The position numbers and the translations under genes are program-made. From NCBI GenBank assembly GCA_964592175.1, contig CAZQBU010000004.1:21412-85411 (forward strand): a stretch of 64,000 nucleotides of DNA, written 5' to 3'. Origin of the DNA: an uncultured Lentimicrobiaceae bacterium. Its GTDB lineage: Bacteria; Bacteroidota; Bacteroidia; Bacteroidales; F082. The notes under the pieces were generated by a model. That model did not search any database and had not been told where the DNA came from. It saw only the letters and a list, made by a program, of their open reading frames with translations. The number at the start of each line of letters is the position of its first letter. Positions within the stretch are counted from its first letter, which is position 1. This document shows, one piece after another, positions 14,737 to 51,484 of the stretch.

Positions 14737-14888
14737 AATCACTGCAATACTCCTGATTCCTTTTATTTCATAAAATAGATCAAACAAAAAAAACAGCCCG
14801 GCATCTCCACCAAAACACATTTTGACCACAGCCATAATGAAACTTTCTTTATTTTTACAGAAACTTATACTGTGCAAAGTGTTTTCAG

Positions 14889-17800
14889 ATGATTTTAAAA
14901 CTTTTAAAGCCGAGAAAGGCATTAAATAAAGCCTTTTTAAAACTAAAACCTGTACGAAGCGATATCGAGCGCTTCAAAGCAAACCTGATTAACTTATTAG
15001 ACAAAATCAATGATGCCGAAAGCGAAGAATATCATAAAAACTTGCTTTCCGACTTCTTGAAAAACACTTATTACGAGCCGGCACATTTTATCAATACCAA
15101 AGGGCGTAACGATTTGGTGATTCATAACGGGAAAAGCCCTGCCAGTACCGTAGCTGTAATCCTAGAAACCAAAAAGCCTACCAATAAATCCGAGATGATT
15201 AGTGCTACCAAGCTGAATGTGAAAGCATTTCATGAGTTGGTGCTCTATTATATGCGCGAGCGAATTCAGTTGAAAAACTTGGAGATACGGCATTTAGTCG
15301 CAAGCAATATTTATGAATGGTATGTATTTGATGCCATTGATTTTGACCGTTTATTTGCACAAAATAAATCCTTTGTACAACAGTTTACCGATTTTGAAAA
15401 TGGCAGATTGGCGGATACGACCACCGATTTCTTTTATAATCAAATTGCAGCCCCTTTTATTGATTCAATAGGTTCAGAAATATTATGTACTCGATTTTAT
15501 CTGTCTGATTATCAGGAATTATTACATGCAACAGACAGAGAAGGCGATAAAAAACTGATTGCATTGTATAAGTTGTTATCTCCCGAGCATTTGCTGAAGC
15601 TTCCTTTCGTGAATGACAGCAATACCTTGGATAAACGCTTTTATGATGAGCTGCTTCATATCATCGGACTTACCGAAACCAAAGATGGCGGAAAGAAAGT
15701 CATTGGTCGCAACGCCGAAGCGAAACGAAATCCGGGCTCATTATTGGAAAATGCCATTGCACAATTGGACAGCCTTGATAAAATCAGTCGCTTGGAAAAG
15801 CCTGCTCGATATGGCGATAATTTACAAGAACGCTTTTTTAATGTGGCGCTTGAGCTTTGCATCAGCTGGATGAACCGTATTTTGTTTTTGAAACTATTGG
15901 AAGCGCAGCTGCTAAGCTATCATAATGGAGATACATCGTATGGCTTTTTAAATAGCGATAAAATTCAAAATTATGACGATTTAAACAGCTTGTTTTTTCA
16001 AGTGCTGGCACGTAAATACGAAGATAGGGACACCGAAGTATTGAAACAATTTGGCAAAGTTCCTTATTTAAACAGCTCTTTGTTTGAGCCTAGTGAATTA
16101 GAACATGACACCCTGTTTATCAGTAATCTACGTGATGAGCGTCAGCTGCCAATTTATGGCTCTACCGTTTTAAAAGACAGCTTGGGACGTAAAAAGACAG
16201 GTAGCTTAGCGGCTTTGGAATATCTTTTTGAGTTTTTGGATGCCTACGACTTCAGCAGCGAAGGCTCGGAAGATATTCAGGAAGAAAATAAAACCCTGAT
16301 TAACGCATCGGTGCTGGGACTTATTTTTGAAAAAATAAACGGCTACAAAGACGGCTCTTTCTTCACGCCCGGATTTATCACCATGTATATGTGCCGCGAA
16401 ACCATCCGTCGTGCCGTAGTACAGAAATTTAACGAAACCAAAGGCTGGAACTGTAGCGGATTGGATGAAATTTACGATAAAATAGAAGACCGTGATGAAG
16501 CAAACCGGATTGTAAACAGCATTAAAATTGTGGATCCTGCAGTAGGCTCCGGGCATTTCTTGGTTTCGGCACTAAATGAGATTATTGCTACAAAAAGCGA
16601 TTTAAAAATCTTGCAAGACCGCAATGGCAGGCGGCTTAAGGAGTATCATGTGGAAGTGGTAAACGATGAGCTGATTGTTACCGATGAAGACGCTGAATTG
16701 TTTGAATACAATCCTGCCAGCCCCGAAAGCCGGCGCGTGCAGGAAGCCCTTTTTCATGAAAAGCAAAGCATCATTGAAAACTGCTTATTTGGCGTGGATA
16801 TCAATAACAATTCGGTGAAAATATGCCGTTTGAGACTATGGATTGAATTATTGAAAAACGCATATTACAAGCCGGAAACCTTGTTAAACGGCAGTCTTCC
16901 TCAGTTGGAAACCTTGCCAAATATTGATATTAATATCAAGCAGGGTAATTCTTTGGTAAGCCGCTTCGCCTTGGATGCCGATTTGCGCCAAGCCTTGAAA
17001 AAGAGCAAGTGGAGCATTGAAAGCTATCGCTTGGCAGTGTCAAGCTACCGCAATGCGCGTAACAGGGAAGAAAAACGCGATATGGCAAGGCTGATACAAG
17101 CGATAAAAACCGACTTCCGCAGCGAAATTACCGAGAACGACCCTAAAGCAAAACGGCTGTATAAGTTACGTGGCGAACTGGTGAATCTGACCACACAACC
17201 TGAGCTTTTTGACCTGAATAAAAAAGAATTAGAACGCTGGAACAAGCAAGTTGAGGACCTTAGTTCCGATATACAAAAGCTGGAAGATGAAATTGAAGAA
17301 ATAAAAAGCAATAAAATTTACGAAAACGCTTTTGAATGGCGTTTTGAATTCCCCGAAGTGCTGAATGACGAAGGAGAATTTGTAGGCTTTGATGTGGTGA
17401 TTGGGAATCCTCCGTATATCAGGCAGGAGGAAATAAAAGAATTTAAGCCGTTTTTTAAATCTCACTATAAGCTTTATACGGGTACATCAGATATTTACAT
17501 TTTCTTTATAGAGAAAGGTTTTGAGATACTCAAACATCAAGGTTTGTTTACTTATATTATGCCTAATAAATTTATGCAGACTGGATACGGTAAACCGGCA
17601 AGAAAATATCTGTTAGAACAAAATTTAAAAGAGATTATTGATTTTGGCGATTTTCAGGTATTTGAAGAGGCAACTACTTATCCATTAATTCTAATGGCAG
17701 AAAAGAACAGTCCGGAAAGCGATTTTAAAACAGTGAAGATTAATTCGCCCGACTTTTCAATAGATTTTCCGCTTTATGTTGAAGAAAATAGCAATATCAT

Positions 17801-18665
17801 TGAGCACAAGTCCCTAAATGATGAAACTTGGATAATATCAAATGCAGCGGAGCAATCAATCTTAAATAAAATAGCATTCAAGTCTGAAAAATTGGAAGAT
17901 TATATCCATAATATAGCCAAATATGGAATTAAAACAGGATTAACAGAAGCATTTGTTATTGATTCAGTGCATGCTGAAGAGATATTGGCGACTCACAATA
18001 ATTATGAAAACCATCTATATCCCTTTTTACTCGGTAGAGAAGCTAAACCATATGTTGTAGAAGAACCATCAAAATATTTAATCAAGTTTGAAAAGGGATT
18101 TACTAATAGCGTGTTTTCAGGTAATCCGGAAAACTGGTTTATGAGTGAGTTTGAAGAGATATATAAACACTTGATTCAATTTAAAGATAGAGCAATTAAA
18201 AGAACAGATAAGGGTGATTATTATTGGGAGCTGAGAGCTTGTGATTATTATGATTTGTTTGATAAACCAAAAATAATGTATCAAAGATTCCAAGTAAAAC
18301 CATGTTTTATTTTTGATGAATCCGGCTTGTATTGTAATGATTCTATGTGGATAATCCCTTCTGATGATATGGTCTTACTTGGTATATTAAACTCAAAAAT
18401 GGGTTGGTGGTTAATTTCAAAATACTGCACAGCTATTCAAAATGGGTATCAATTGATTTGGAAATATTTTAGTCAAATTCCTATCGCTATAGGAAACGAG
18501 CCAATAAGGAATGAAATAAAATCACGTGTAAATTCAATCATCGATCTCAAAAAAGAAGATTCAACTGCCGACATTATTACTCTTGAAGCAGAAATCGACC
18601 AATTGGTTTATGAACTTTATGGTTTAAATGAAGAGGAAATCGCAATAGTAGAAAACGCAATATAA
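14889..18665 (+). CDS. Type IIG restriction-modification enzyme (PD-ExK nuclease + gamma-class N6-adenine methyltransferase + target-recognition region, Eco57I-like)
   Basis: 1258 aa. Nuclease motif D75 ... E93-T-K95 (NDLVIH...VILETKKP, 15111-15173). AdoMet motif VDPAVGSGHF (16530-16559). Catalytic motif VIGNPPYIRQEE (NPPY at 17406-17417). The C-terminal third resembles a TaqI-like specificity domain. Confidence 0.85.
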   Translation: MILKLLKPRKALNKAFLKLKPVRSDIERFKANLINLLDKINDAESEEYHKNLLSDFLKNTYYEPAHFINTKGRNDLVIHNGKSPASTVAVILETKKPTNKSEMISATKLNVKAFHELVLYYMRERIQLKNLEIRHLVASNIYEWYVFDAIDFDRLFAQNKSFVQQFTDFENGRLADTTTDFFYNQIAAPFIDSIGSEILCTRFYLSDYQELLHATDREGDKKLIALYKLLSPEHLLKLPFVNDSNTLDKRFYDELLHIIGLTETKDGGKKVIGRNAEAKRNPGSLLENAIAQLDSLDKISRLEKPARYGDNLQERFFNVALELCISWMNRILFLKLLEAQLLSYHNGDTSYGFLNSDKIQNYDDLNSLFFQVLARKYEDRDTEVLKQFGKVPYLNSSLFEPSELEHDTLFISNLRDERQLPIYGSTVLKDSLGRKKTGSLAALEYLFEFLDAYDFSSEGSEDIQEENKTLINASVLGLIFEKINGYKDGSFFTPGFITMYMCRETIRRAVVQKFNETKGWNCSGLDEIYDKIEDRDEANRIVNSIKIVDPAVGSGHFLVSALNEIIATKSDLKILQDRNGRRLKEYHVEVVNDELIVTDEDAELFEYNPASPESRRVQEALFHEKQSIIENCLFGVDINNNSVKICRLRLWIELLKNAYYKPETLLNGSLPQLETLPNIDINIKQGNSLVSRFALDADLRQALKKSKWSIESYRLAVSSYRNARNREEKRDMARLIQAIKTDFRSEITENDPKAKRLYKLRGELVNLTTQPELFDLNKKELERWNKQVEDLSSDIQKLEDEIEEIKSNKIYENAFEWRFEFPEVLNDEGEFVGFDVVIGNPPYIRQEEIKEFKPFFKSHYKLYTGTSDIYIFFIEKGFEILKHQGLFTYIMPNKFMQTGYGKPARKYLLEQNLKEIIDFGDFQVFEEATTYPLILMAEKNSPESDFKTVKINSPDFSIDFPLYVEENSNIIEHKSLNDETWIISNAAEQSILNKIAFKSEKLEDYIHNIAKYGIKTGLTEAFVIDSVHAEEILATHNNYENHLYPFLLGREAKPYVVEEPSKYLIKFEKGFTNSVFSGNPENWFMSEFEEIYKHLIQFKDRAIKRTDKGDYYWELRACDYYDLFDKPKIMYQRFQVKPCFIFDESGLYCNDSMWIIPSDDMVLLGILNSKMGWWLISKYCTAIQNGYQLIWKYFSQIPIAIGNEPIRNEIKSRVNSIIDLKKEDSTADIITLEAEIDQLVYELYGLNEEEIAIVENAI

Positions 18666-39509: not shown

Positions 39510-39570
39510 AAACCTGAAATGAAATTGCTTGCTTGAGAAAATCAAATAGGCTATTTCTAATATATTTGTA

Positions 39571-39600
39571 AAAGGCTGCCTAATTGCTAGGCGGCCTTTT
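39571..39600 (+). terminator. Rho-independent terminator after the SusCD unit
   Basis: AAAGGCTGCCTA / TAGGCGGCCTTT, a 12-bp stem with one G-U pair and a 5-nt loop, ending in TTTT. Confidence 0.6.
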
Positions 39601-39704
39601 ACATTTTATAGCTGCCCAATAGTCTGGTTAAGGAAATGTATGAAAGAAATTTCATGGGAAAATGGATTTAAATTTTCTCCGGATAAAGCCGAAATATAGA
39701 ATGC

Positions 39705-40232
39705 TTATTGCTTTACGATTTGCTCCATGCAGCTTGGGCAAAAGTTTTTTGATTTTTGATCAATATCTTCCACATAGGTGCTTGATTGCATGACACAGTC
39801 CGGATGATGGCAGTGAATGAGCCCAAAGGAATGCCCGAGTTCGTGGTTGATTTCTTTGATGAGGCGGTCTTGTAATAATAAATCGTTCTTTTTTAAGCCA
39901 TAAAGCTCATTTTGCAAGCGGTATAGTGAAGCGATTGCCGAATTACCGTTTAAGTAGGCCTGCCCGAAAATGTATGTTAAAATTGGAATAAATAAATCTA
40001 CACTTACCAAGCCGATGGTTTTGTGCGATTTATGGTTTAATTCCTTTTCTACATAATCCAGCAGCATATTGGCATTATATTGTTTTCTGTTGGAATCGTA
40101 ATAAGGCTCAAGATCGTGAAAATGAACTTTTGTTTCTACAGTTAATTTAAACGAGTTTGACACATCTTCTGCAACAACTTCTAAAAGTTGTCTGTCAAAA
40201 TATCCTAAGCTTATTAATCGGATGACGGTCAT
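39705..40232 (-). CDS. Archaemetzincin-like zinc metallopeptidase (peptidase M54)
   Basis: 175 aa. HELGHSFGLIHCHHPDCVM then 16 residues then CPSC, which matches the archaemetzincin signature HExxHxxGxxHCxxxxCxM...CxxC. Confidence 0.85.
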   Translation of the reverse strand: MTVIRLISLGYFDRQLLEVVAEDVSNSFKLTVETKVHFHDLEPYYDSNRKQYNANMLLDYVEKELNHKSHKTIGLVSVDLFIPILTYIFGQAYLNGNSAIASLYRLQNELYGLKKNDLLLQDRLIKEINHELGHSFGLIHCHHPDCVMQSSTYVEDIDQKSKNFCPSCMEQIVKQ

Positions 40233-40282
40233 TTGGTATTTTTGAAATTTGAAAAAAGAACGGTTTTGATTCCTACTGTGTT

Positions 40283-41623
40283 TTATTCCGGTTTTTCAAT
40301 TTCATATTTCTTCATTTTATTATAAAGCGTTACCCTGTCAATGCCGAGTACCCTGGCAGTTCTGGAAATATTCCATTCATATTTTTCCAGTATCTGGTGA
40401 ATATGTTTCTTTTCCAATTCATCGAGGCTTTCAACAGTAGAAGTGTTTGCAGCTTTTGATAAGGGTAAGTCTCTTACTTTTATTTCTTTCCCATTGCCAA
40501 TCACTATGGCACGCTCAATCATATTTTCAAGCTCTCTCACATTGCCTGGAAAATCAAACTCTTGAAGACGCTCCAAAGCGGCTTTTTCAATTGTTACGAG
40601 ATTTTTGCTCATTGCGGTGCAGAATTTTTTAATAAAATGATCTACAAGCAATGGGATATCGCTTTTTCGTTCGCGTAATGCAGGTATTCGAATGTTTACC
40701 ACATTTAATCTGTAATACAAGTCTTCTCTGAAGGTGCCTGCGTCTACCATTTGTTTTAAATCACGGTTTGTGGCACATATTACGCGGAAGTCGGAAGTGA
40801 TTTGTTTGTTTCCTCCAACCCTCATAAAGCTTTTTGTTTCGAGCACACGCAGCAGTTCAATTTGCATTTTAGCAGAGATAGTAGCAATCTCATCTAAGAA
40901 AATGGTGCCGCTATCTGCCATTTCAAATCTTCCTTTACGGTTATATACTGCCCCTGTAAACGCTCCTTTTTCATGCCCAAACAGCTCGCTTTCCAATAAA
41001 CTTTCGCTCAAAGCACCGCAATGTACGCTGATAAGTGGGAAAAAGCGTCTTTGAGAGTTGGCATGTATGGCACGTGCAATAATTTCTTTTCCGGTACCGC
41101 TTTCTCCGGTCAAAATAACTGTTGCATTGGACTGTGCCACGCGTTCCACTTCTTTGAGCAGCTCTTGCATAGGCTCACTTTCTCCAATGATGTCCTCCAC
41201 ATTTTCCAAGCTAATGACCTGCTCACGTAAGCGCATATTTTCGTCTTTTAAATTCACTTGCAGTGAAGCATTTCGGATGAGGTGCGATAAATCATCCGGG
41301 TCGAAAGGCTTGGTGACATAATCGAATGCGCCATCCTTTAATGCTTGTACGGCAGTATCCACGGTGGCAAAAGCGGTCATCACGATTACAATGGCATCGG
41401 GCTTGAGGCTTTTGATGCGCTTAAGCATTTCCAAACCATCCATGCCGGGCATTTTAATATCCGTTAAGATGATGTCAAATACTTCTTCCTCAAGCATCTG
41501 CAATGCTGTTTTAGCATTTTCGGCACAGCTTACTCTATATCCGTCCTCCTGAAACCAATTGGCTAATGAGTCACGGACAGAAGATTCATCGTCTACAATA
41601 AGTAATGATATTTTTTTAGGCAT
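40283..41623 (-). CDS. Sigma-54-dependent response regulator (NtrC family: REC + AAA+ + Fis-type HTH)
   Basis: 446 aa. REC domain (LLIVDDE ... DIILTDIKMPGMDG). AAA+ Walker A GESGTGKE, GAFTGA sigma-54 contact loop and ESELFGHEKGAFTGA. C-terminal HTH ISRTARVLGIDRVTLYNKMKKY. Confidence 0.9.
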   Translation of the reverse strand: MPKKISLLIVDDESSVRDSLANWFQEDGYRVSCAENAKTALQMLEEEVFDIILTDIKMPGMDGLEMLKRIKSLKPDAIVIVMTAFATVDTAVQALKDGAFDYVTKPFDPDDLSHLIRNASLQVNLKDENMRLREQVISLENVEDIIGESEPMQELLKEVERVAQSNATVILTGESGTGKEIIARAIHANSQRRFFPLISVHCGALSESLLESELFGHEKGAFTGAVYNRKGRFEMADSGTIFLDEIATISAKMQIELLRVLETKSFMRVGGNKQITSDFRVICATNRDLKQMVDAGTFREDLYYRLNVVNIRIPALRERKSDIPLLVDHFIKKFCTAMSKNLVTIEKAALERLQEFDFPGNVRELENMIERAIVIGNGKEIKVRDLPLSKAANTSTVESLDELEKKHIHQILEKYEWNISRTARVLGIDRVTLYNKMKKYEIEKPE

Positions 41624-43313
41624 TGCTTTGTTTATTTTGATCTAATAGTGGGAAAGTGATATGAAAAGCGGTTCCTTTACCAAGCTCTGAACTGACTTCG
41701 ATTTTTGCTTTATGGCTTTGGATAATGCCATGTACAATGGCTAAACCAAGACCAATACCGCTTGCTTCATGTTTAGTAGAATAAAAAGGCTCAAAAATAT
41801 GTTCAATATTTTCCGGGTCCATGCCTCTGCCGTTATCGATAATTGAAATACGTACCGAGTTTGGATTGGGATTAAAAGTATGTAGGGTGATTTCGCCGGT
41901 GATATTCGGTTGCATTGCTTCACTGGCGTTCACTATCATTGCAATACAAGCTTGTTTAATCTGGTTTGGCGTGCATTGGATTAAATCTTCCGTTGCAGTG
42001 AAATGCTTGTTGAAGCTGATGTTTTTCATTTTCATCGGATGCTTCATCAACTCATGCGTACTTTCTAAAATATCGTGCAAATGACTGATTTCTTGATGTT
42101 CATCGTCTTTACGTGAAAAATCCAACAGCCCTTTTACGATATCACCGCAGCGTTTTGTTTCGTTTTCAATGAGTTTTAATTTGCTTAAAATACCTTGTTT
42201 CTTTTCTTCATCCAAATTGGGATTGCTAAGCTGTTTGTGTACTAATTTGGTATACACCAAAATACCTGATAAGGGATTATTCAGTTCGTGTGCTACGGAT
42301 GAAGAAAGTTTACCTAATGACGCAATACGTTCAATCTGAATGAGTTCTTGTTGCACCGAGCTCAGTTCCTCACTTTTTTTACGCACCTTATATTCTAATT
42401 GTCTCGACCAGTTTTCAAGTTCAATATTTGCGGCTTGAAGTTTGTCGAGCATTTTATTAAAAGCGTATGACACCAATTTAATATCGTCTAATTCGTCAGC
42501 CATCGGCTGTAGGCGGGTTTCGGTTTCACCCCTTGCCACCGAAAGACTTGCATCAATCAAGGCATTTAAAGGACGTTTTACATTCTTTTGGGTGAAAAAC
42601 ACCAAGAATAACGCCACTAATACGGTAATACTCAATGCAAACAAGAAATACTTGGTTGAAGACTCACGAATTGATGTGTCAAGCTGTCCCAGCGGCATCT
42701 TGATAATAAGTGAGCCCAACATGGTTTCTTCCGGGAAATGTGCATGGCAATCGGCTGTGAAGCAGGATGATTCGTTAAGTATTGGGTTTCTTATCAGCAG
42801 ATAACGCTCGTTATTGTCTGTAAGAAACATTTCGCATTTGCTTTTGCCGTCAATAATATGGTAGGTTTTTTCCTCTCCGGGAAAAATTTGATCCAAGGAG
42901 AGGTGGCAGTTCATGCAGTCCGGGTCTTCGTACTCATCTATGGGTTTGGTAGAGTAGGAGGTGTAAACCATATAGTCCGTATTGTCGTATAACTCCACCT
43001 CGTCAATACCCGAGAGTGTATTAATTAAATCTAGGGTGTTATAAAGTTCGGTTTTATCGTTGCGTAACATCGAATGATATAAAGCTCCCTCAACTATTGC
43101 TCCGACATTATTTCCGTTTTGATAAATCAAATTTTGCAGAAAATGCTCGTTAACCGTCCTGAATATAATTACATAAGTGCCTAGCAATAATGCAGATAGG
43201 GCTGCTATAATTATAACAACCCGGCTGTATATTGATGAATGAAACCGCACATATTGTTTGACGATTTTATTCTTTTTGGCTTTTGATTTCCTCCGCCACA
43301 TCCTTTTTGTCAT
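41616..43313 (-). CDS. Sensor histidine kinase with Cys/His-motif periplasmic domain, HAMP, HisKA and HATPase_c
   Basis: 565 aa. TM1 at aa 31-51. A periplasmic region of about 170 aa contains CMNCH (aa 133-137) and CFTADCH (aa 184-190). TM2 at aa 222-240, then HAMP, the H-box SSVAHELNNPLSGI and a G-box GIGLGLAIV. 8-nt overlap with the response-regulator gene. Confidence 0.85.
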   Translation of the reverse strand: MTKRMWRRKSKAKKNKIVKQYVRFHSSIYSRVVIIIAALSALLLGTYVIIFRTVNEHFLQNLIYQNGNNVGAIVEGALYHSMLRNDKTELYNTLDLINTLSGIDEVELYDNTDYMVYTSYSTKPIDEYEDPDCMNCHLSLDQIFPGEEKTYHIIDGKSKCEMFLTDNNERYLLIRNPILNESSCFTADCHAHFPEETMLGSLIIKMPLGQLDTSIRESSTKYFLFALSITVLVALFLVFFTQKNVKRPLNALIDASLSVARGETETRLQPMADELDDIKLVSYAFNKMLDKLQAANIELENWSRQLEYKVRKKSEELSSVQQELIQIERIASLGKLSSSVAHELNNPLSGILVYTKLVHKQLSNPNLDEEKKQGILSKLKLIENETKRCGDIVKGLLDFSRKDDEHQEISHLHDILESTHELMKHPMKMKNISFNKHFTATEDLIQCTPNQIKQACIAMIVNASEAMQPNITGEITLHTFNPNPNSVRISIIDNGRGMDPENIEHIFEPFYSTKHEASGIGLGLAIVHGIIQSHKAKIEVSSELGKGTAFHITFPLLDQNKQSNA

Positions 43314-43393
43314 TGTATCCTTCCTTAATTACAAAAATAGTGATTTTCAGATACAATCAGCTATTATTTGTTTAAAAATCTAAGCTACTCATT

Positions 43394-43975
43394 TCAAGAG
43401 CCACTAAACAGAAAATCTTGCGCCAAATCCTTCCATATTTCTTGAGGAAGTATCTGCAATATTTGAGGGCGTAATTCTCCGCCGTCATAAAGCACTTGCG
43501 CACTGCCTGCTTGATTATTTTTCCAAAGGGAGGCAGCTAAAAAGTCTCTGAAACGTATTGTTTCCGATTTAAACCATGCATCGGAACTTTCTTCGGCTAG
43601 GGTATGTGCTCTTTCATTAATCCAGTTGGAGGGCTTAATCGTAAATAGCCATGCTGATTCCTGCTTTGTGTCTGTATCTGCCAAAACAGCTGCTTCTTTA
43701 TTTATTGCTAAAATTTCTCCGGAAAGCGGACTAAGAATATCTAAATACTTATCTTTTTGTTGGATTTGGCCGATGTATTCACCTTTCGTTAATTTCGCCC
43801 CTTCTTGCAGCTGTGGGTTAAATTTCGCATCTCCGATGACTTTGCTTAGGAATGGTCCTAGATGAATGCGAATAGCCCCTTCCGACTCAACTATTAACTG
43901 TAAATGATTTATACTGTGGAAACTGCCTTTTTGGCTTACCAAAGAATCAAATTTATGTTTGTTTTGCTTTTTCAT
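43394..43975 (-). CDS. Soluble GcvH-like (lipoyl/swinging-arm fold) domain protein with C-terminal extension
   Basis: 193 aa. IGDAKFNPQLQEGAKLTKGEYIGQIQQKDKYLDILSPLSGEILAINKEA aligns by eye with the GcvH core (lGdivfvelPevG..v..gd.fg.vESvKa.sdlysPvSGevvevN). WLFTIKPSNW matches the GcvH GWlfkik block. Confidence 0.5.
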   Translation of the reverse strand: MKKQNKHKFDSLVSQKGSFHSINHLQLIVESEGAIRIHLGPFLSKVIGDAKFNPQLQEGAKLTKGEYIGQIQQKDKYLDILSPLSGEILAINKEAAVLADTDTKQESAWLFTIKPSNWINERAHTLAEESSDAWFKSETIRFRDFLAASLWKNNQAGSAQVLYDGGELRPQILQILPQEIWKDLAQDFLFSGS

Positions 43976-44146
43976 AAACTAATTATGCATTTAATTGTTA
44001 AAAAGAAGGCTGCCGCTTTGCCCGAATGCCAAGTTGTGGGCGTATTAGCTGACAGCCTTTATGTTTGCACGATTATCGCTTAGAACTTTTTATTTTGATT
44101 TCGCAAATGAAATATTATTAATTGATTATCAGTTCACTAAGTCAGA

Positions 44147-45643
44147 TTATTTTAAAAATTCAGCTTCGAATTCTACCCACATTTCAGGTGTCATTTCACT
44201 CATAAAGCCTGTTTTTAGTTCGCCACCGTCTTGATAAGCTACTGTTTCTAGGCTCATATACTGTTGATTAATCATGGAAGCAACAAACTCTCTCAAACGA
44301 TTAAATTCTTGTTTTACCCATTGACGATATGCATCTGCCATGAATAAAAACTCGGTTTCGCGTTTCCAGTTTGCCGGCTGAATTTTATAAATCCATGAGC
44401 TTGTCAAATCTTCATTTCCCATGATGGAATTGATGTCTTTGTTGATTTCGGTGATAACTCCCGAAACGGAAGCGATAAGCTTTACTTTTTTACCTTGGTA
44501 GTGAATGGAAGCAAGTACATCACCTTTTTTAATTTCGCTGTTGATGTCTTTGAATTCAATTTTGTCGGCTTTACCAAAGGCTTTGCGTAAAAAATCATCC
44601 AAACCGATTTTTACTTTTCCTGAAGTTTCTAAAAATGCCCAAGTATGGGTTTTGTCGTACAGCAAACCGTTTGGCGTATCCAATGCTTGTGGAGCAAAAT
44701 CTTCACTTCTATTTTCCTTAGCCATGCTGTAGCCTTTTGCTTTTCTGCTTAAGAGCAAGGTTACTACATAACCTGCAATTGCTATTCCTGCGATAATAAT
44801 GAGTAGGAGGGCAGCCCAATTATCTTTTGTAGCTGCAGATTCTTCGGTTTGAATCGGATTAATTGCTTTTACTTGTGCAATCAGTTCGTGTGGTTTTGGA
44901 TTTGCAAATCCGTGCTCGGCAAGAATTCCTTTTCCGGAAGCAAGCATCCAGCTCATATAATTAATGTCGGCTTCGCTCAACTCAAGTTCATAGCTTACAA
45001 GACTCAAGTTGTTCATCAAAATACGGGGATATTTTCCAACCCACAGTGCATGCTGTAAGCTTTCGATTGATGAATAAAAATCTTCTTGTGCATCAATTTT
45101 TCCGTTTCCGTTTCTGTCAACAGCTATAATTTGGATGGCTGCAGACGGATTTTCTTCCATGAAGCGGATATAATCGGATAAATAACAGAATCCGACTGCC
45201 GTAGGATTTTTAGTTGCCATTGCAACGAAATTTTCGATGCTTCCGGCAGCTTCTGCTTGTATACCGTTATTAAATCTGAAATTTAAATGACTAATTATAT
45301 CATCAGTAATATAGGTAATGGTGTTTTCCATAGGATTGGAAAAATATGCAAAAGGAATACCTTGTTCCATTAGCTCTACAATCTCCGGATTGTTTTGTGC
45401 GCTAATTGGAATAATTGCATCGCGTGCAATTAAAAACTGATGAATTGCTGTGCCTTCATTACGAATTAGATCGTTGTCAGTTTGAATCACTAAATTAAGT
45501 TGTGAAGCATCAATTTTATCCGAAGGGATTGCTTCGGTAACAATGCTTTCTACTTGTTCTGCTTTCGTGAAATTTGGATTGAAACTTGCAAAAGCTGTGT
45601 TGATGATCATCAGAAGGCTGAAAAGAATTAGGTTTGTTTTCAT
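44147..45643 (-). CDS. Membrane protein: signal peptide + periplasmic domain of about 250 aa (substrate-binding-protein-like) + one TM + cytoplasmic GcvH-like domain
   Basis: 498 aa. Signal peptide MKTNLILFSLLMIINTAFA, TM at aa 276-298. The GcvH-like region is aa 326-445 (44309-44668): YDKTHTWAFLETSGKVKIGLDDFLRKAFGKADKIEFKDINSEIKKGDVLASIHYQGKKVKLIASVSGVITEIN ... WIYKIQPANW. The C-terminal tail is paralogous to that of 43394..43975. Confidence 0.5.
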   Translation of the reverse strand: MKTNLILFSLLMIINTAFASFNPNFTKAEQVESIVTEAIPSDKIDASQLNLVIQTDNDLIRNEGTAIHQFLIARDAIIPISAQNNPEIVELMEQGIPFAYFSNPMENTITYITDDIISHLNFRFNNGIQAEAAGSIENFVAMATKNPTAVGFCYLSDYIRFMEENPSAAIQIIAVDRNGNGKIDAQEDFYSSIESLQHALWVGKYPRILMNNLSLVSYELELSEADINYMSWMLASGKGILAEHGFANPKPHELIAQVKAINPIQTEESAATKDNWAALLLIIIAGIAIAGYVVTLLLSRKAKGYSMAKENRSEDFAPQALDTPNGLLYDKTHTWAFLETSGKVKIGLDDFLRKAFGKADKIEFKDINSEIKKGDVLASIHYQGKKVKLIASVSGVITEINKDINSIMGNEDLTSSWIYKIQPANWKRETEFLFMADAYRQWVKQEFNRLREFVASMINQQYMSLETVAYQDGGELKTGFMSEMTPEMWVEFEAEFLK

Positions 45644-45690
45644 GATTATAATTTTTTTAGATTATTTTTTTATCAATTTACCTTTATATA

Positions 45691-45707
45691 GGCGAATACC
45701 GTGCCAA
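45691..45707 (-). promoter_or_regulatory. Candidate sigma-54 (-24/-12) promoter for the 45643..39705 operon
   Basis: The minus strand reads TTGGCACGGTATTCGCC. TGGCACG matches the -24 element exactly, the spacing is GG-N10-GC, and the -12 element is TCGC versus consensus TTGC. The -12 GC lies about 48 nt upstream of the ATG at 45643. The operon encodes a sigma-54 activator. Confidence 0.5.
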
Positions 45708-45748
45708 ACTTTGTAAAGTATCAGTAAATCAACAAGATACACTAAATA

Positions 45749-45877
45749 GTTGAAAAAATATACAACGCTAACTGTTGAAAAAATATACAGTCATATCCGG
45801 TTAGTTGCCTAAGCAATTGATAATGAACATTATAAGTTGAGTGTTTAAAAATGCAACAGCTGTTGAAAAAATATACA
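45749..45877. promoter_or_regulatory. Three perfect direct copies of GTTGAAAAAATATACA (candidate activator-binding/UAS sites)
   Basis: Copies at 45749-45764, 45774-45789 and 45862-45877; copies 2 and 3 share an extended CTGTTGAAAAAATATACA. They lie 42-170 bp upstream of the putative -24 element, in the 622-bp divergent intergenic region. Confidence 0.4.
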
Positions 45878-46265
45878 TACACTTGTAACAAATTGGAAGA
45901 CTGTGGATTGTATTAATGGATTTATTCTATTCGATGCTGTTGTGTCAATAAGTAGGATGAAAAACAAGTCCAATCTTTCTTTCCGAAAAAAACAACTTTA
46001 TTCAAACTATTACATGCTTGTTCGAGAAAAATGAGGCAAGTTGCAGATTCATGAAATATAGATTTGGAATGATTTCCTCAAGCTGCATTCGTGTATTTTA
46101 AAAATGCCAATGCTTTAACATCTAAAACTTTATCATCTGATTTTGTTGTCATCTTATTTTTAATCTTACTTAGATTAATTATAAATTGCAGGAAATCAAC
46201 AACTAAGCGATTTTATAAGCCAAACTTTGTTTAATTTAGATGCAAAATATTTGAAGGGATAGCTT

Positions 46266-49200
46266 ATGAGTCAGTATATCAAAATCACTATAAATGGCAA
46301 GCAATTAACCGGCTTCGAGGGCGAATCCGTTTACGATTGTGCATTGCGTCATGGAATTGAAATACCTTGTATGTGTTATGATCCACGATTGGAACCCTTG
46401 AACTCTTGTGGTATTTGCATGGTGGAAATTGAAGGCAAGCAGCGCTTACATTCTGCAAACCTCACCTATTTATATAAGGATATCTCAATAATTACTGAAA
46501 GCGATGTGCTTAGTACTTATCGCCGAAAAACTTTGGAAGATAAGCTTCGTACTCATTTTGCAGATTGCCTACCACCTTGTACTACGGTTTGTCCTGTTGG
46601 AGTTGACATTCAAGCTGTGATTGCATTACTGAAGAATAATAGGCTTCAAGATGCTGCATATCGCCTGGCTGAACGGAATCCGCTTGCAAATATTTGTGCT
46701 GCAATTTGTCCGCACCCTTGCGAATTTGCTTGTGGTGAAAGACATGATTCAAATGGCTCCAAAGTTTCAATCAGGGAGATTGAGAAGGCTGTTGCCGCAC
46801 AACGGCAATCGCTTATTGAAGACAATAAAATTGAATCTAACGGAAAGTCGGTTGTGATATTTGGCTCCGCTGCGGCTGCCTTGCTGGCATCCTATTTATT
46901 GAATCAAAAAGGATATCGTGTACAAATACTTGATTCCTCTGCTTCTTTCGGAGGCTGGATGCGTACTGCTGCCCGGGATAAGCAGCTTTCAGAGGGCTTA
47001 TTGGATAAAGACATTGATTTTATTGCTGCTTCTGGTGTAGACTTTTCTTCCTTAAAGGAGTATGAGGAATCATCTATATTATCGGAGGTTTTACAAAAAG
47101 CAGATGCATTATTGCTTACAACAGAAATAATGGATTCAAGTCGTTTGGCTCAACTTATTCGTGATTTACATTCGAATGATGACTCAATCATGGATAAAAC
47201 GCAATTGCAAGCCCTATCAGATTCCTTGCAAACTGCAATTCCTTTTGTATTTGCCTTAAAAGATTTTGATGAAAAACCTGAATTGTTTGTTGATCAACTA
47301 AAACAAGCCATTATAGCAGCTGATTCGATTGATAGCTATCTTATGAATCGTCCTTTTAAACCGCAATCTGAAGCGTTTTTGAGTAAAAAGAAACATTTTA
47401 TTGCGGTTGATATACCTCATGCCACTGCCGAAATCAGTCAAAGTTCTCAAAATATTTCGGATATAATTGCTGACTGTACTGAATGTGGCTGTTTGAGCTA
47501 TTATGACTGCAAGTTGCGTTTGTATTCCGACCGTTATGGTGCCAAACAAAAGGATGTGGATAGGCGTGTCATCGATATGAAGATTGACAGCCGCCATCCA
47601 TTCATACGATTGGAGCCTGCAAAATGTATAGGATGTGGGCGCTGCGTGCGTGTTTGTGCGGAAATAGTGGGTGCTAAGGCATTGGAAATGCGAGAAACCG
47701 AAATAAAATCCTTTGCTGCCCCTGTGAATTCATTAGCTTTGACAGAAACCAATTGTGAATCCTGCGGAATGTGTATTACAAGCTGTCCGGTAGGAGCAAT
47801 TTCTGAAAATCATGACTTTAGTTTTGGTCCATTACCTGTACAAGCCATACATTCGATTGATATGGTAGGCTCCGAAGGTTATGAAATTGAACTATTCAAT
47901 TACCGTGATGCCTTATATGCCGCAAGACCTTTGCAGCATGAAATGAACCGCTTGAGTTTGATCAACCGCCGTCAGTTATTTGGATATAAGCATTTTAGCG
48001 ATAGGGATCGTATTAGTAAACCCATGCTTCGTACAGTAGATACCTGGAAAGAAATTGAATTTCAAGAAGCTTTTAAGCTGATTGCGGAACGTATAAAAGC
48101 AGTTTCAGCGGATGAAAATGCATGTTTTGGAGGTGCCCGCCTATCGAATGAAGAATTATATATGATACAAAAGCTGGCTCGCACCGGCGCAAAAACCAAT
48201 AATACGGCAAGCTTCCATTATATGGGAAGGGGGGAAGGCTATGTACGAAATTCCAATGAAAATGCGATTTATTGCGATATACGCGGTGCTTCAAAACTGT
48301 TTGTGGCAGGAGGGGAGCTGCACTTGAATCATCCTATCGTAAACCACCTGATTATGAATACCCGCCATAAGGAAGGTATTGAATTGGTGCATATTACGAC
48401 AAAAGCTGATTCCTGGTTTAGTAAAAAAGCCGATCAACAAATTCGGATACGCAATTATTTTCACTTCATTAAAGCAGTCAATTATTACATCATTAAAGAA
48501 AAACGATATAACGAAGATTTCGTAAACAGCCGTACCGAAGACTTTGAAGCATATATGAAATCCATGCTTTCGGAAGATTATGATACCTTGTTGCGTGCAG
48601 CCGGTGTAAGCCATGAAGTAGTTTCCGGTTTTGCCGAAGATTATATCAATGAAATGAATGCCCTGCTTATTTTTGAAGAAAAGGAGCTTTCGGCAAATAC
48701 GGGTATGTCCATGCATAATTTGGCGATGCTTACCGGCAAATTAGGTAAGACCGCCACCGGTATCATTGCGCTAAAAGAGCGAAATAACAGTCACGGAATT
48801 TTCGATATGGGGGTCAGCCCGCAGCTTGGCCCCGGTGCAGAAGCTATTTGCGATCCTGATTTGCAATACCGCATGGCATTCTTATGGAAGACGGACGAAT
48901 TACCTTCTACTATTTTGGATGTGAATACGTTATTCCATCAAGGCAAGTTGCGTAATGCCTTTATCTTTGGTGAAGACCCTGCAGGATGTGCCGTAGATAA
49001 GGAGCACATCATCGATAAGCTGAAGCAGATTGACTTTTTGATGGTTCAAGACTTCTTTATGTCGGATACGGCACGTATGGCGGATTTGATACTTCCGGCT
49101 TCTTTCCCATGGGAGATGGGGGGAAGTTATACCAATTCGCAGCGGCGTATACAGCAGATTGACAAACAATTAGAAGGACCGCTTCGCATGAATTCATTTG

Positions 49201-49442
49201 AACAGTTGCTGGAAATCACAAAGCTATTGACACTCGTAACTACCGACAGTCCGCAAGAAGCAATGGATGAAGCCTTAAGCTTGTTTCCAAGGCGTGGAGA
49301 TTATAAAGAACTGCGTTTTGTGTACAAAGAAAAAGACAATGCCAACCGTCAGTTTGAATACGGATGCGATGTGCTGAATAAGCGTATTGATGAAGAATTT
49401 GCCGAAAAGTTGGGTGGGAAGTTTGTTGTTGCTAGTACTTGA
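46266..49442 (+). CDS. Multidomain Fe-S protein: 2Fe-2S ferredoxin-like + GltD-N-like Fe-S + degenerate FAD/NAD Rossmann-like + 2x[4Fe-4S] ferredoxin + molybdopterin-oxidoreductase (Fdh/NuoG)-like domain lacking canonical ligands
   Basis: 1058 aa. IPCMCYDPRLEPLNSCGICMVEIEGK resembles a NuoG/Fdh 2Fe-2S domain. CLPPCTTVCPVGVDI...NPLANICAAICPHPCEFAC resembles the GltD N-terminal domain. KSVVIFGSAAAALLASYLLNQKGYRVQILD and FVFALKD resemble the Rossmann region and the GD motif. KCIGCGRCVRVCAE and CESCGMCITSCPVGA are ferredoxin motifs. DRISKPMLR, SNEELYMIQKLAR and DFLMVQDFFMSDTARMADLILPAS are MopB blocks. Confidence 0.7.
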   Translation: MSQYIKITINGKQLTGFEGESVYDCALRHGIEIPCMCYDPRLEPLNSCGICMVEIEGKQRLHSANLTYLYKDISIITESDVLSTYRRKTLEDKLRTHFADCLPPCTTVCPVGVDIQAVIALLKNNRLQDAAYRLAERNPLANICAAICPHPCEFACGERHDSNGSKVSIREIEKAVAAQRQSLIEDNKIESNGKSVVIFGSAAAALLASYLLNQKGYRVQILDSSASFGGWMRTAARDKQLSEGLLDKDIDFIAASGVDFSSLKEYEESSILSEVLQKADALLLTTEIMDSSRLAQLIRDLHSNDDSIMDKTQLQALSDSLQTAIPFVFALKDFDEKPELFVDQLKQAIIAADSIDSYLMNRPFKPQSEAFLSKKKHFIAVDIPHATAEISQSSQNISDIIADCTECGCLSYYDCKLRLYSDRYGAKQKDVDRRVIDMKIDSRHPFIRLEPAKCIGCGRCVRVCAEIVGAKALEMRETEIKSFAAPVNSLALTETNCESCGMCITSCPVGAISENHDFSFGPLPVQAIHSIDMVGSEGYEIELFNYRDALYAARPLQHEMNRLSLINRRQLFGYKHFSDRDRISKPMLRTVDTWKEIEFQEAFKLIAERIKAVSADENACFGGARLSNEELYMIQKLARTGAKTNNTASFHYMGRGEGYVRNSNENAIYCDIRGASKLFVAGGELHLNHPIVNHLIMNTRHKEGIELVHITTKADSWFSKKADQQIRIRNYFHFIKAVNYYIIKEKRYNEDFVNSRTEDFEAYMKSMLSEDYDTLLRAAGVSHEVVSGFAEDYINEMNALLIFEEKELSANTGMSMHNLAMLTGKLGKTATGIIALKERNNSHGIFDMGVSPQLGPGAEAICDPDLQYRMAFLWKTDELPSTILDVNTLFHQGKLRNAFIFGEDPAGCAVDKEHIIDKLKQIDFLMVQDFFMSDTARMADLILPASFPWEMGGSYTNSQRRIQQIDKQLEGPLRMNSFEQLLEITKLLTLVTTDSPQEAMDEALSLFPRRGDYKELRFVYKEKDNANRQFEYGCDVLNKRIDEEFAEKLGGKFVVAST

Positions 49443-49555: not shown

Positions 49556-51484
49556 ATGGCTAAAATGCGTATAAAACTTGACGAACTGGCAAACCCAGAT
49601 GAGAAGAAAGTATATAAAATTCTTGAAACTAAATTGTCAGATGATTATCATGTTTGGCCTAACTTTAATTTTCATAAAGTTGGCCGTGAAATAGATTTTG
49701 TAATACTTCATCCACTTGACGGTATATACGTCCTTGAAGTTAAAGGTTGGTTAAAACAAAATATTAACTTTAACAGTGAAGGGAAATTACAATTTGTTAA
49801 TTCAAAAGGTGAGAAATCGATACAATCAAATCCATTAGATCAGGTTAAATTAAATGTTCAACTGATATTGGCTGAATTAATAAAGAAAGTAGAATTTCAA
49901 CAAGATTCCGGATATTATAAGGGGAGATTAATATTCCCTATTAGTTATGGCGTTGTTTTTACTAATATTCGTGCTGAAGAAATTGAAAAAAATAATTGGT
50001 CAGAAAAATTCCCCCTTAATTCGATTTTAGATAAAGGGTTTGCTAATGGTGAATACTTCAATGAACAGGATTATGAAGACTCTTTAAAACAACTTAGGAA
50101 GCTGACATATACTAATCCAAGAAGCTTAACTAATAAACAGTGGGAAATTATCTCTAGTTTCTTTGGTACTACTATTATTCAAAATGTAAATGATGATGCG
50201 GTTATAGGGGTTTTAGATGAGTTTCAAGAGGAGTTAGTTCGCCATGAAATAACTAAAACTGTTATTTTTGAAGGTCCTGCCGGAAGTGGTAAATCAATAG
50301 TATTAGTTAATCGAGCAGAATTTATTCATGAGCAAAACCCAAATAGTAAAATTGGTGTATTTTGTTTTAATGTTGTGATGGCTAATATGTTAAGAAGTTT
50401 GCTGAATAAGAGAGAGTTTAATGATAATATAGAAGTACATCATTTTGATAGCAATTATATTGATAAGTTTCCAGAAAAATACTTTGATGCAATACTCATA
50501 GATGAAGCTCAAGATATGGAAGATAAACATTTTAATAAAATATTCGATCTTTTGAAAACTGAATCCTTATCAATATTTTATGACCCAAAACAAAATATAT
50601 ATAATAGGAGTAGTTTGCAGTCTCTACTTGAAGGACATGGTATAGTTGCAGAGTATACTAAGAAATTAATTCGTCAACAAAGGTCACCTCTACTTTTACT
50701 TGCACAAATCATGTATGATTCGATTATGCAGTTTGAAGAAGATGATAGTGATATATATATAGATAATATAGATCAAGTCATTGAGAAAGTCCTTAGTCAA
50801 GCACCTCAATATTTTGAATCTGCTTCGGACCCAATTTCATCAATTGCCACTGGTGCAGCTAGACATTTTACTATTGAAGGTCAAGAATTATCAGAGCTTA
50901 CTTTAACTGAAATGCTATCTTTTAGAATTGAAGTAAAAGAAATGAAATATGTTAAAGATATTATTAAAGATTTCATTGAAATTATTAAGGATTTTGTTGA
51001 TGTAGAGATAGCTACTTATAATGATTTTGCTATTATTTTTCCAGCGCGTAAACTATATGATGGTTATCAGGCTGTTTCAATCGAATATTGGGCTAAAAGA
51101 TTATTTGAGGAAGAAAAAATTCCAATTCGGATTATTAATAATAAACAAGGAAGAGTTATTCAAGCACCGGAATTTGAGGAGATTATGGAAAATGATAATA
51201 GAGAATTTGATTTTGAGGATGATGTAGTGCGATGTACTACTATAAATCAATTTAAAGGGTTAGATGCAAAATATATTGCGATAGTTGGTTTTGAGAATAT
51301 AACAAATCGTATTGAGAATAATCGTTATACTGATTTTGAATCAGATAAAAAGAAAAGTGCATCCTTGGCTTATGCGGGACTAACACGAGCTACTGAACAA
51401 TGTTGGGTTTATTATATACAATCAAACAAATCAATAGAAATTTTAGAGCATGTGCTTGAAAGTGAGTATTTAGTTTTTAGCTAG
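49556..51484 (+). CDS. NERD-domain nuclease fused to a UvrD-like SF1 helicase (P-loop NTPase)
   Basis: 642 aa. N-terminal NERD pattern (EKKVYKILETKL..YHVWPNFNF...REIDFVILHPLDGIYVLEVKGW). Walker A GPAGSGKS and Walker B AILIDEAQD. The C-terminal blocks TTINQFKGLDAKYIAIVGF and AYAGLTRATEQCWVY are UvrD_C-like. The gene is strongly AT-rich. Confidence 0.8.
   Translation: MAKMRIKLDELANPDEKKVYKILETKLSDDYHVWPNFNFHKVGREIDFVILHPLDGIYVLEVKGWLKQNINFNSEGKLQFVNSKGEKSIQSNPLDQVKLNVQLILAELIKKVEFQQDSGYYKGRLIFPISYGVVFTNIRAEEIEKNNWSEKFPLNSILDKGFANGEYFNEQDYEDSLKQLRKLTYTNPRSLTNKQWEIISSFFGTTIIQNVNDDAVIGVLDEFQEELVRHEITKTVIFEGPAGSGKSIVLVNRAEFIHEQNPNSKIGVFCFNVVMANMLRSLLNKREFNDNIEVHHFDSNYIDKFPEKYFDAILIDEAQDMEDKHFNKIFDLLKTESLSIFYDPKQNIYNRSSLQSLLEGHGIVAEYTKKLIRQQRSPLLLLAQIMYDSIMQFEEDDSDIYIDNIDQVIEKVLSQAPQYFESASDPISSIATGAARHFTIEGQELSELTLTEMLSFRIEVKEMKYVKDIIKDFIEIIKDFVDVEIATYNDFAIIFPARKLYDGYQAVSIEYWAKRLFEEEKIPIRIINNKQGRVIQAPEFEEIMENDNREFDFEDDVVRCTTINQFKGLDAKYIAIVGFENITNRIENNRYTDFESDKKKSASLAYAGLTRATEQCWVYYIQSNKSIEILEHVLESEYLVFS

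Follow-up and report, generated by a model that had tools for sequence, protein, structure and literature searches.

Gene content of the locus

The subject of this analysis is a locus of six genes within a 64,000-nt stretch of contig CAZQBU010000004.1 from an uncultured Lentimicrobiaceae bacterium, referred to as the window in the following. Five of these genes are co-oriented on the minus strand and encode, in order of transcription, a 498-aa protein (44147–45643; designated G1), a 193-aa protein (43394–43975; designated G2), a 565-aa sensor histidine kinase (41616–43313), a 446-aa sigma-54 activator of the NtrC/AtoC/ZraR type (40283–41623) and a 175-aa zinc metalloprotease of the archaemetzincin family (39705–40232). 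Gaps of 171, 80 and 50 nt lie between them, and the kinase and regulator genes overlap by 8 nt (41616–41623). Across a spacer of 622 bp (45644–46265) the gene for a 1058-aa iron-sulfur (Fe-S) protein diverges on the plus strand (46266–49442). According to our preferred interpretation, to which we assign a probability of roughly 0.6, the region consists of two evolutionarily separable neighbors: a reduced sigma-54 sensor locus (39705–45643) and an orphan gene of the StnC/NfnA type (46266–49442), the product of which probably persists as an Fe-S scaffold with a new partner.

A preliminary description of this DNA had listed the same six open reading frames (ORFs) with these coordinates, strands, gaps and spacer length, all of which were borne out. 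Its domain calls were likewise recovered by Pfam and NCBIfam scans, which matched GCV_H, albeit weakly, in both the 193-aa and the 498-aa protein, as well as Peptidase_M54, Fer2_4, Fer4_20 and Molybdopterin. It had also pointed out that the usual partners of these domains are missing. Indeed, Pfam scans of the other 30 window ORFs of at least 200 aa detected no gcvT, gcvP or lpd, no lipoate ligase and no molybdenum-cofactor or fdh accessory genes; these ORFs represent housekeeping, polysaccharide, SusC/D and restriction-type genes. The view that neither a glycine-cleavage locus nor one for formate dehydrogenase is present here thus stands, based on the lack of partner genes in the window and on family scores below the cut-offs, as detailed below. 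The same holds for the statement that no system with this gene set has been described: in the literature on the gene combination, archaemetzincin operons, NrfD-like complexes and Bacteroidota sigma-54 regulons we found no description of the operon.

Downstream of the archaemetzincin gene, a hairpin with a 16-bp stem (39567–39603) separates it from a convergent gene of 268 aa and is likely to serve as a bidirectional terminator closing the unit. Rfam and tRNA scans of the window were empty.

A conserved predicted sigma-54 promoter with putative upstream activator sites

G1 is preceded by a predicted sigma-54 -24/-12 promoter, TGGCACGGTATTCGC, located on the minus strand at 45692–45706, 49 nt upstream of the ATG, and identified by sequence match and conservation. 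What had been called a good match is insignificant on the window sequence alone, as eight -24/-12 matches with one mismatch occur window-wide versus 5.0 expected, and becomes convincing only through its conservation in relatives. A strict scan of these relatives for TGGCAC-N5-TTGC gave almost nothing. The -12 element of the family reads TTGA or TTGG, and the scan was relaxed to TGGCAY-N5-TTG. Of about 80 non-redundant loci, all except 5 then showed the TGGCAY element upstream of G1, and the fuller pattern TGGCAY-N5-TTG was present in 71 loci.

Upstream of this promoter, the relatives carry dyads of the type TGTTGA-N5-TCAACA. Allowing up to two mismatches, 170 such dyads were counted in the 71 loci, compared to 0.02 per locus in shuffled sequences. 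There are two to four sites per locus, positioned at -182, -163, -93 and sometimes -69 relative to the -24 element. In the window the dyads lie at -171 (TGTTGAAAAAATATACA, 45861–45877), -152 (TGTTTAAAAATGCAACA, 45842–45858) and -83 (TGTTGAAAAAATATACA, 45773–45789), i.e. the layout of the relatives is moved by about one helical turn. A weak fourth site with three mismatches to the dyad (45748–45764) is located about 58 nt upstream of the -24 element by our own count. The cluster of upstream activator sites was found only once in the 64-kb window. The three perfect 16-nt direct repeats that the preliminary description had noted in the spacer are present (GTTGAAAAAATATACA; 45749–45764, 45774–45789 and 45862–45877), the first copy coinciding with the weak fourth site, and they correspond to three of the conserved putative activator sites.

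By its sequence pattern, the combination of dyads and promoter is a classical enhancer-binding-protein arrangement. Phylogenetic footprinting over about 70 loci recovers a cognate -24/-12 promoter with upstream dyads, to which binding of the NtrC-type regulator is predicted. Since the same enhancer and promoter layout also precedes loci that retain only G1 from the cargo genes, G1 appears to be the universal output. Facing the 1058-aa gene, no sigma-54 promoter was detected in the window. The spacer additionally contains the 12-mer GCCAAACTTTGT twice, once overlapping the -24 element on the opposite strand (45703–45714) and once 36 nt before the ATG of the 1058-aa gene (46219–46230); this duplication may be due to chance.

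The operon is widespread in Bacteroidota and reduced in the window

Relatives of G1 number in the hundreds, all of them in Bacteroidota. Scanning one genome per species, a G1 relative was found in at least 542 Bacteroidota species genomes, and an exhaustive profile search retrieved 652 clusters at 50% identity (E ≤ 1e-30). Carriers include Tangfeifania diversioriginum, Maribellus, Draconibacterium, Prolixibacter and Mariniphaga, and the window itself is matched at 98% protein identity by a Lentimicrobiaceae metagenome-assembled genome (MAG). A profile search with G2 for relatives beyond Bacteroidota yielded only the same family among the best 120 matches.

Gene order was assessed by a tblastn survey of the best 80 species-level loci; L-numbers denote loci in genomes and metagenome contigs that were compared with the window. 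The usual order in these relatives is G1, a 288-aa Fer4_11 protein (gene B), a 408-aa NrfD protein (gene C), a GCV_H protein of about 240 aa (G2), the kinase, the sigma-54 regulator and the Peptidase_M54 protein. This full arrangement G1-B-C-G2 occurs in 65 of the 80 loci, and a further four, truncated by contig ends, still carry B or C. In seven loci the kinase follows G1 directly, two loci, that of the window's own species and L010, share the window arrangement G1-G2-kinase, and two are uninformative. The seven loci with G1 followed by the kinase (L017, L028, L030, L045, L053, L079 and L080) contain neither genes B and C nor G2, continue with regulator and archaemetzincin, and show an unchanged enhancer/promoter layout. 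The archaemetzincin gene follows the regulator gene in all 61 informative loci. The core of the family is hence composed of G1, the kinase with its Cache-fold sensor, the NtrC-type activator and archaemetzincin. The preliminary description had proposed synteny as a check. For the minus-strand genes, the comparative evidence that they form a true syntenic unit under sigma-54/two-component control is very strong; the 1058-aa gene, in contrast, lies next to the operon in no more than 2 of the 80 species-level loci.

Gene B of the relatives resembles HmcB (305 bits) and HybA (207 bits) and encodes a protein with a Tat signal and four Cys clusters, while gene C resembles HmcC (317 bits) and HybB (215 bits). 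The window has neither gene, whereas at least 65 of the 80 relatives have the pair, and no remnants of hmcB, hmcC, stnA or stnB were detectable in the window, including the 171-nt and 622-bp spacers. Because nothing of either gene is left, the 171-nt gap between G1 and G2 appears to reflect a clean deletion of the HmcBC-like pair. The window thus holds a reduced form of the operon, which the preliminary description had overlooked.

The other locus of this type, L010, is close to the window in the kinase (82% identity), the regulator (89%) and the protease (77%), compared to 74%, 85% and 65%, respectively, for L002. Together with the identical deletion boundaries in the 1058-aa proteins of both lineages, these values suggest that the window and L010 are sisters and that the HmcBC-like pair was lost once. 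G1 of the window and of L010 are only 44% identical. An acceleration of G1 and G2 evolution following the loss of HmcBC was considered and rejected, as G1 is equally divergent between relatives that keep HmcBC.

Kinase, regulator and archaemetzincin

The kinase comprises a first transmembrane (TM) helix, a periplasmic Cache-fold domain, a second TM helix and HAMP, HisKA and HATPase_c domains. Between the TM helices lie about 165 residues, for which the AlphaFold2 (AF2) model (pLDDT 78) displays a Cache/PDC fold; Foldseek matched it to the sCache domain of WalK and to the heme-c sensor GSU0935 (3b42, E 1.4e-4). This sensor contains the motifs C133-x2-C136-H137, C160 and C184-x4-C189-H190-A-H192. 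In 68 kinase sequences M82, C133, H137, C160, C184, C189, H190 and H192 are invariant, and C136 is conserved in at least 90%. By their sequence, CxxCH and Cx4CH are heme-c-type motifs placed in a Cache fold, a feature that the preliminary description had overlooked, and we infer that the sensor carries one or two covalent hemes.

The regulator consists of a REC domain, an AAA+ domain with the GAFTGA motif and a Fis-type helix-turn-helix, in agreement with its matches to Response_reg (PF00072), Sigma54_activat (PF00158, 236 bits), PF25601 and HTH_8 (PF02954), i.e. the domain set of NtrC-type proteins. It shares 85–89% identity with its orthologs in L002 and L010. The protease scores 168 bits with the archaemetzincin model NF033823 (cut-off 145) and matches PF07998. 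Its motif HELGHSFGLIH (HExxHxxGxxH) and the four cysteines of the second metal site (CHHPDC, CPSC) are intact and conserved in 55 orthologs; judged by these motifs, the always-syntenic archaemetzincin is an intact protease.

G1 and probably G2 possess H-protein folds

G1 is composed of a signal peptide, a periplasmic binding domain, a TM helix, a cytoplasmic H-protein fold and a C-terminal extension. In its AF2 model (pLDDT 80), residues ~325–450 superimpose on E. coli H-protein (3ab9) with a Foldseek TM-score of 0.87 and an rmsd of 1.8–2.0 Å. The N-terminal domain is a type-II binding domain with weak PDB matches to PstS and ModA. It contains an EF-hand-like loop, D176-x-N-x-N-G-x-I-D-x-x-E187, that is invariant across 113 family members and suggests a structural or regulatory Ca2+ site. 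The C-terminal extension of 60 residues carries an invariant Q-D-G-G (QDGGE). At the hairpin, where H-proteins carry their lipoyl-lysine, G384-K385 is invariant in 113 sequences. When aligned to 1onl and 2ka7 by HMMER, however, the residue matching the lipoyl-Lys is G384, and K385 follows one position behind, so that the lysine does not occupy the canonical position.

G2 (PF01597, E 1.4e-6; C-terminal YDGGEL extension) is a paralog of the cytoplasmic part of G1. The window copy lacks the N-terminal TM helix of its ~240-aa orthologs, and tblastn aligned it only with residues 60–233 of the L002 ortholog. Neither protein reaches the GcvH cut-offs: NF002270 gives 57 bits for G1 and 29 bits for G2 (cut-off 117), and TIGR00527 gives 46 and 31 bits (cut-off 116). 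Association with gcvT or gcvP was not observed either, neither among the window ORFs of at least 200 aa nor in the gene tables of L001–L008. Of note, the membrane-anchored G2 family appears in NCBI and JGI records under the name "glycine cleavage system protein H". Its shifted lysine, TM anchor and C-terminal extension, together with the operon context, make a systematic misannotation probable. JGI names for relatives of G1 describe fusions of H-protein and phosphate-binding protein.

The divergent gene encodes an orphan, truncated StnC homolog

The preliminary description treated the 1058-aa protein as an unexplained giant. It belongs, however, to the characterized StnC/NfnA family of Bfu-type transhydrogenases. 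Pfam detects Fer2_4, Fer4_20, a short NAD_binding_8, Fer4_7 and Molybdopterin, and the protein matches the PDB entries 9bov_A (E 3.9e-98) and 8oh5_C (E 2e-93), each in 3–4 collinear stretches. 8oh5_C is StnC of the electron-bifurcating transhydrogenase StnABC of Sporomusa ovata, in which StnC comprises a 2Fe-2S domain, a GltD-like FAD/NADPH domain with two 4Fe-4S clusters, NuoG-like clusters and a catalytically inactive FdhF-like domain, while StnA (NuoE-like) and StnB (NuoF-like) form the bifurcating module (PMC10482914). The window protein can be read in the same way as a 2Fe-2S domain, two Fer4_20 clusters, a GltD remnant, a NuoG/HoxU-like 4Fe-4S part and an FdhF-like part. Placement in a characterized family had been named beforehand as an outcome speaking against the original proposal, and for the 1058-aa component it applies. 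A formate dehydrogenase alpha subunit is not indicated, since TIGR01591 scores 253 bits versus a cut-off of 666 and covers model positions 12–500 of 672, and PF01568 is missing.

In two metagenome contigs, L002 and L007, a complete stnABC-like operon with NuoE-like, NuoF-like and 1237-aa subunits diverges from G1, and the synteny of both contigs with the window extends as far as the SusC/D pair. These two contigs come in addition to the 2 of 80 species loci in which a homolog of the 1058-aa protein lies beside the operon. The genes for StnA and StnB are gone in the window as well as in the L008/L010 lineage, and tblastn of the L002 StnA and StnB sequences against the window returned nothing below E = 1. 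The deletion in the 1058-aa protein has the same boundaries in both lineages and spans about 140 residues. In the 1237-aa relatives, the deleted stretch contains a GGGNTAMD Rossmann motif, which we read as the NADPH-binding site. Two further lesions were observed in the window copy. First, the FAD motif reads GSAAAA instead of GxGPxG or GxGxxG in homologs, so that with the second Rossmann motif deleted neither the FAD nor the NADPH site of StnC is preserved. Second, of the four 2Fe-2S ligands C37, C48 and C51 are kept, whereas Asn65 replaces the cysteine of 9bov_A, 8oh5_C, L002 and L008. The remaining cluster cysteines are conserved, as is the FdhF-like domain.

All genes of the locus are under purifying selection

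Selection was assessed by dN/dS against the close relative L004. Values are 0.034 for G1 as a whole, with 0 nonsynonymous versus 32 synonymous changes in its GcvH part, 0.03 for kinase and regulator, 0.04–0.09 for the Fe-S and FdhF-like parts of the StnC homolog, 0.24 for its GltD remnant and 0.21 for G2. All genes of the locus are under purifying selection, and pseudogenization, which was considered, is rejected on these grounds. As the layout has moreover been kept while G1 diverged to 44% identity, the reduced locus is no field of pseudogenes.

DNA identity between window and L004 is about 99% from 34158 to ~43650, a segment including SusC/D, protease, regulator and kinase genes. From there on, through G2, G1, the spacer and the StnC homolog (compared to 49450), identity drops to 83–95%, and dS rises from 0.01–0.04 to 0.3–0.4. 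Both changes at ~43650 point to a recombination breakpoint inside the G2 gene.

Proposed function and alternative explanations

We regard the locus as a sigma-54 two-component envelope/redox circuit with an unusual and unstudied output. In our model, the kinase would read the periplasmic redox state or a heme ligand, and the phosphorylated activator would bind the TGTTGA-N5-TCAACA repeats and open the sigma-54 promoter. The output would consist of G1, with an oxyanion-type periplasmic binding domain, a TM helix and a cytoplasmic H-protein fold, and of G2. In most relatives it would also include a Tat-exported 4x[4Fe-4S] HmcB/HybA-like protein and an HmcC/HybB (NrfD)-like membrane protein interacting with quinone, and this pair could connect some periplasmic partner to the quinone pool. 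G1 might act as effector or as feedback co-sensor of the kinase, by analogy to ZraP of the sigma-54-dependent ZraPSR system. For the GcvH-fold domains, a docking or regulatory function is more likely than one as carriers in glycine cleavage. The HmcBC-like pair would have been lost once in the window lineage and its sister L010, the former additionally losing the membrane anchor of G2, with the remaining genes of the reduced locus being retained under purifying selection. The gene at 46266–49442, in turn, would encode a StnABC/NfnABC large subunit that has lost its NADPH subdomain and the StnA/StnB module.

Several observations weigh against this interpretation. The -12 element of the window reads TCGC where the family has TTGC or TTGA. 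Between the G2 and kinase genes, a terminator-like hairpin with a T-run is present in 24 of 56 relatives (0.26 expected), for example in L002, L010, L013, L020, L021, L027 and L031, which indicates that kinase, regulator and protease often form a unit separate from the sigma-54 cargo unit. The five genes may accordingly represent two transcription units, which makes autoregulation of kinase and regulator less certain. In the 80-nt gap of the window no such hairpin was found, and read-through across it is possible as judged by its sequence. The Bacteroidetes-type motif TAnnTTTG is not enriched in the G2-kinase gap (11 versus 8.5 expected). In L027 this gap also holds a 1.4-kb insertion. The DUF3365/Tll0287 Pfam model gives no match to the kinase sensor, even at E ≤ 1. 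G384-K385 at the hairpin of the GcvH fold may be a modification site after all. That heme is attached, that the activator binds its sites and that transcription depends on sigma-54 are predictions from sequence, as is the nature of the signal, and the role of G1 as effector or co-sensor is an analogy. Finally, the StnC remnant has stayed next to the operon in each of the two reduced lineages, with a single intergenic region common to both units, and a functional link between them is possible in this clade.

A more far-reaching proposal takes up this last point. The core, usually with the HmcBC-like pair and G2, would be an undescribed complex for envelope-redox signaling and respiration in Bacteroidota, in which tethered H-protein folds, either cofactor-bearing or docking, have acquired a new role independent of glycine cleavage, and in the window clade the NADPH-less StnC remnant would have been recruited as their cytoplasmic Fe-S partner after loss of the quinone module. 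We consider this combination unlikely.

Equally doubtful in our view is an explanation that regards the GcvH-fold proteins as cofactor-bearing carriers, such that the HmcBC-like module and two tethered carriers of the full operon constitute a quinol-linked thiol/disulfide relay of the lipoamide type, from which the window keeps the carriers only. The LbpA proteins of the sHdr sulfur-oxidation system would offer a loose parallel to such a relay, and a published study provides a precedent for lipoate-binding proteins outside glycine cleavage (PMC6067878). The invariance of G-K at the hairpin in 113 G1 sequences, the preserved canonical core motifs of H-proteins and the joint presence of carriers and HmcBC-like genes in 65 of 80 loci fit this idea. 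However, the lysine is off register by one, and in G2 it is conserved in less than 90% of a 69-sequence alignment, albeit in at least 90% of a 17-sequence subset. The HmcB-like protein is periplasmic according to its Tat signal, whereas the positive-inside rule predicts a cytoplasmic location for the GcvH domains. According to PMC8076601, NrfD-type subunits are devoid of cofactors, and electron transfer across the membrane by these subunits would hence not be expected. Moreover, G1 is kept without HmcBC-like genes in seven lineages and in the window clade, and a lipoate-ligase gene is missing among the window ORFs of 200 aa or more.

According to the original proposal, all six genes form one electron-relay module under two-component/sigma-54 control, in which lipoylated GcvH-like swinging arms shuttle reducing equivalents between G1 in the membrane and the 1058-aa Fe-S protein in the cytoplasm. 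The common control region of 622 bp speaks for it, as do the retention of the Fe-S gene beside the operon in both reduced lineages (window and L010) despite 44% G1 identity, the purifying selection on every part and the genuine GcvH fold with its invariant hairpin lysine; furthermore, an Fe-S protein devoid of NADPH site and StnAB must have another partner. On the other hand, the swinging-arm link between binding domain and Fe-S protein finds no comparative support, as just 2 of 80 species loci have the 1058-aa gene beside the operon. In L002 and L007 the homolog is part of a complete stnABC-like operon, which means that the neighborhood is older than any new function. The 1058-aa gene has no sigma-54 promoter directed towards it, the lysine lies one residue off the lipoyl register in proteins scoring far below the GcvH cut-offs, and the family core exists in about 70 species without such an Fe-S protein nearby. 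A single module of this kind is therefore quite improbable.

That the locus merely represents decaying, non-functional leftovers of two operons after deletions, as the losses of the hmcB/hmcC-like genes, stnA/stnB, the NADPH subdomain, the FAD motif, one 2Fe-2S ligand and the G2 membrane anchor and the raised dN/dS of the GltD remnant (0.24) and G2 (0.21) might suggest, is highly improbable given that all ORFs are intact in the window, in its close relatives L004–L006 and in the separate L008/L010 lineage, that dN/dS is 0.03–0.10 for G1, kinase, regulator and the Fe-S and FdhF-like parts with 0 nonsynonymous versus 32 synonymous changes in the GcvH domain of G1, and that the reduced layout persisted down to 44% G1 identity.

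Significance

Taken together, we favor the interpretation of two separable neighbors, a reduced sigma-54 sensor locus next to an orphan StnC-type gene, of interest to research on the physiology of Bacteroidota, on signal transduction and on flavin-based bifurcation. Large and strictly syntenic, the operon family shows one of the cleanest conserved sigma-54 enhancer layouts, and its parts are labeled in databases as "hypothetical protein" or, probably wrongly, as "glycine cleavage system protein H". It offers a regulon that is testable in cultured anaerobic Bacteroidota, carriers in culture being, for example, Tangfeifania diversioriginum DSM 27063, Sunxiuqinia elliptica and Maribellus sp. YY47. 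This regulon combines a Cache kinase that may bind two hemes and a DNA site of defined sequence with an output possessing an H-protein fold. The orphan StnC indicates that selection can maintain the large subunit of a bifurcating transhydrogenase even after this subunit has lost its pyridine-nucleotide site and its bifurcating partners, which bears on the re-use of Bfu-type modules. As a warning for annotation, matches to the GCV_H and Molybdopterin domains do not equal glycine cleavage and formate dehydrogenase.

Neighboring genes

Next to the StnC homolog, a gene with NERD and UvrD/SF1-helicase domains is located on the plus strand (49556–51484), with a GC content of about 31% compared to about 39% around it. 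Its absence from the otherwise collinear MAG contig L004 (94–96% identical) points to a strain-specific insertion. The gene looks defense-related and weakly matches the N-terminus of MADS6. At 13103–18665, also on the plus strand, an IrrE/M78-type peptidase gene is followed by a gene for a 1258-aa fused restriction-methylase of the Eco57I/MmeI type; this patch of 34–35% GC is probably a defense islet.

Comparison with known systems

Genes B and C of the full operon are reminiscent of HmcB/HmcC of the Desulfovibrio Hmc complex and of HybA/HybB of E. coli hydrogenase 2, but their scores remain below the cut-offs of 420 and 550, and the operon of the relatives lacks a hydrogenase, a multiheme cytochrome and an HdrD-like subunit. 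With GcvH, GcvH-L and LbpA, the H-like domains of G1 and G2 share the core motifs HxW, GxxD, PxSG and GW, but they are membrane-tethered, possess the 60-residue C-terminal QDGGE extension and have their lysine shifted by one. The 1058-aa protein has the same domain order as the StnABC/NfnABC large subunit StnC (8oh5_C, 9bov_A, 9n5u_A). It differs by the lack of ~140 residues, its residues 290–319 replacing residues 289–458 of 9bov_A, and by the absence of co-encoded StnA and StnB in the window.

Domains of the sCache_heme type are defined by an inserted CxxCH motif (preprint PMC12889525). The sensor of the kinase resembles those of this group (DUF3365/Tll0287; GSU0582, GSU0935) in combining a periplasmic Cache fold with an inserted, strictly conserved CxxCH, although the family profile does not recognize it. 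It is further distinguished by a second invariant motif, Cx4CH(A)H, and by additional invariant Cys and Met residues.

The regulatory part is most similar to the ZraPSR and AtoSC systems, with AtoC (487 bits), ZraR, AtoS and ZraS as the best NCBIfam matches. The likeness extends to dyad sites upstream of a sigma-54 promoter, which is predicted to drive expression of an envelope protein encoded beside kinase and regulator. Nonetheless, kinase and regulator score below every equivalog cut-off. Moreover, the kinase sensor is a Cache fold with two heme-c-type motifs, and the output is a bitopic protein joining a binding domain to a GcvH fold, accompanied by the HmcBC-like pair in most species.

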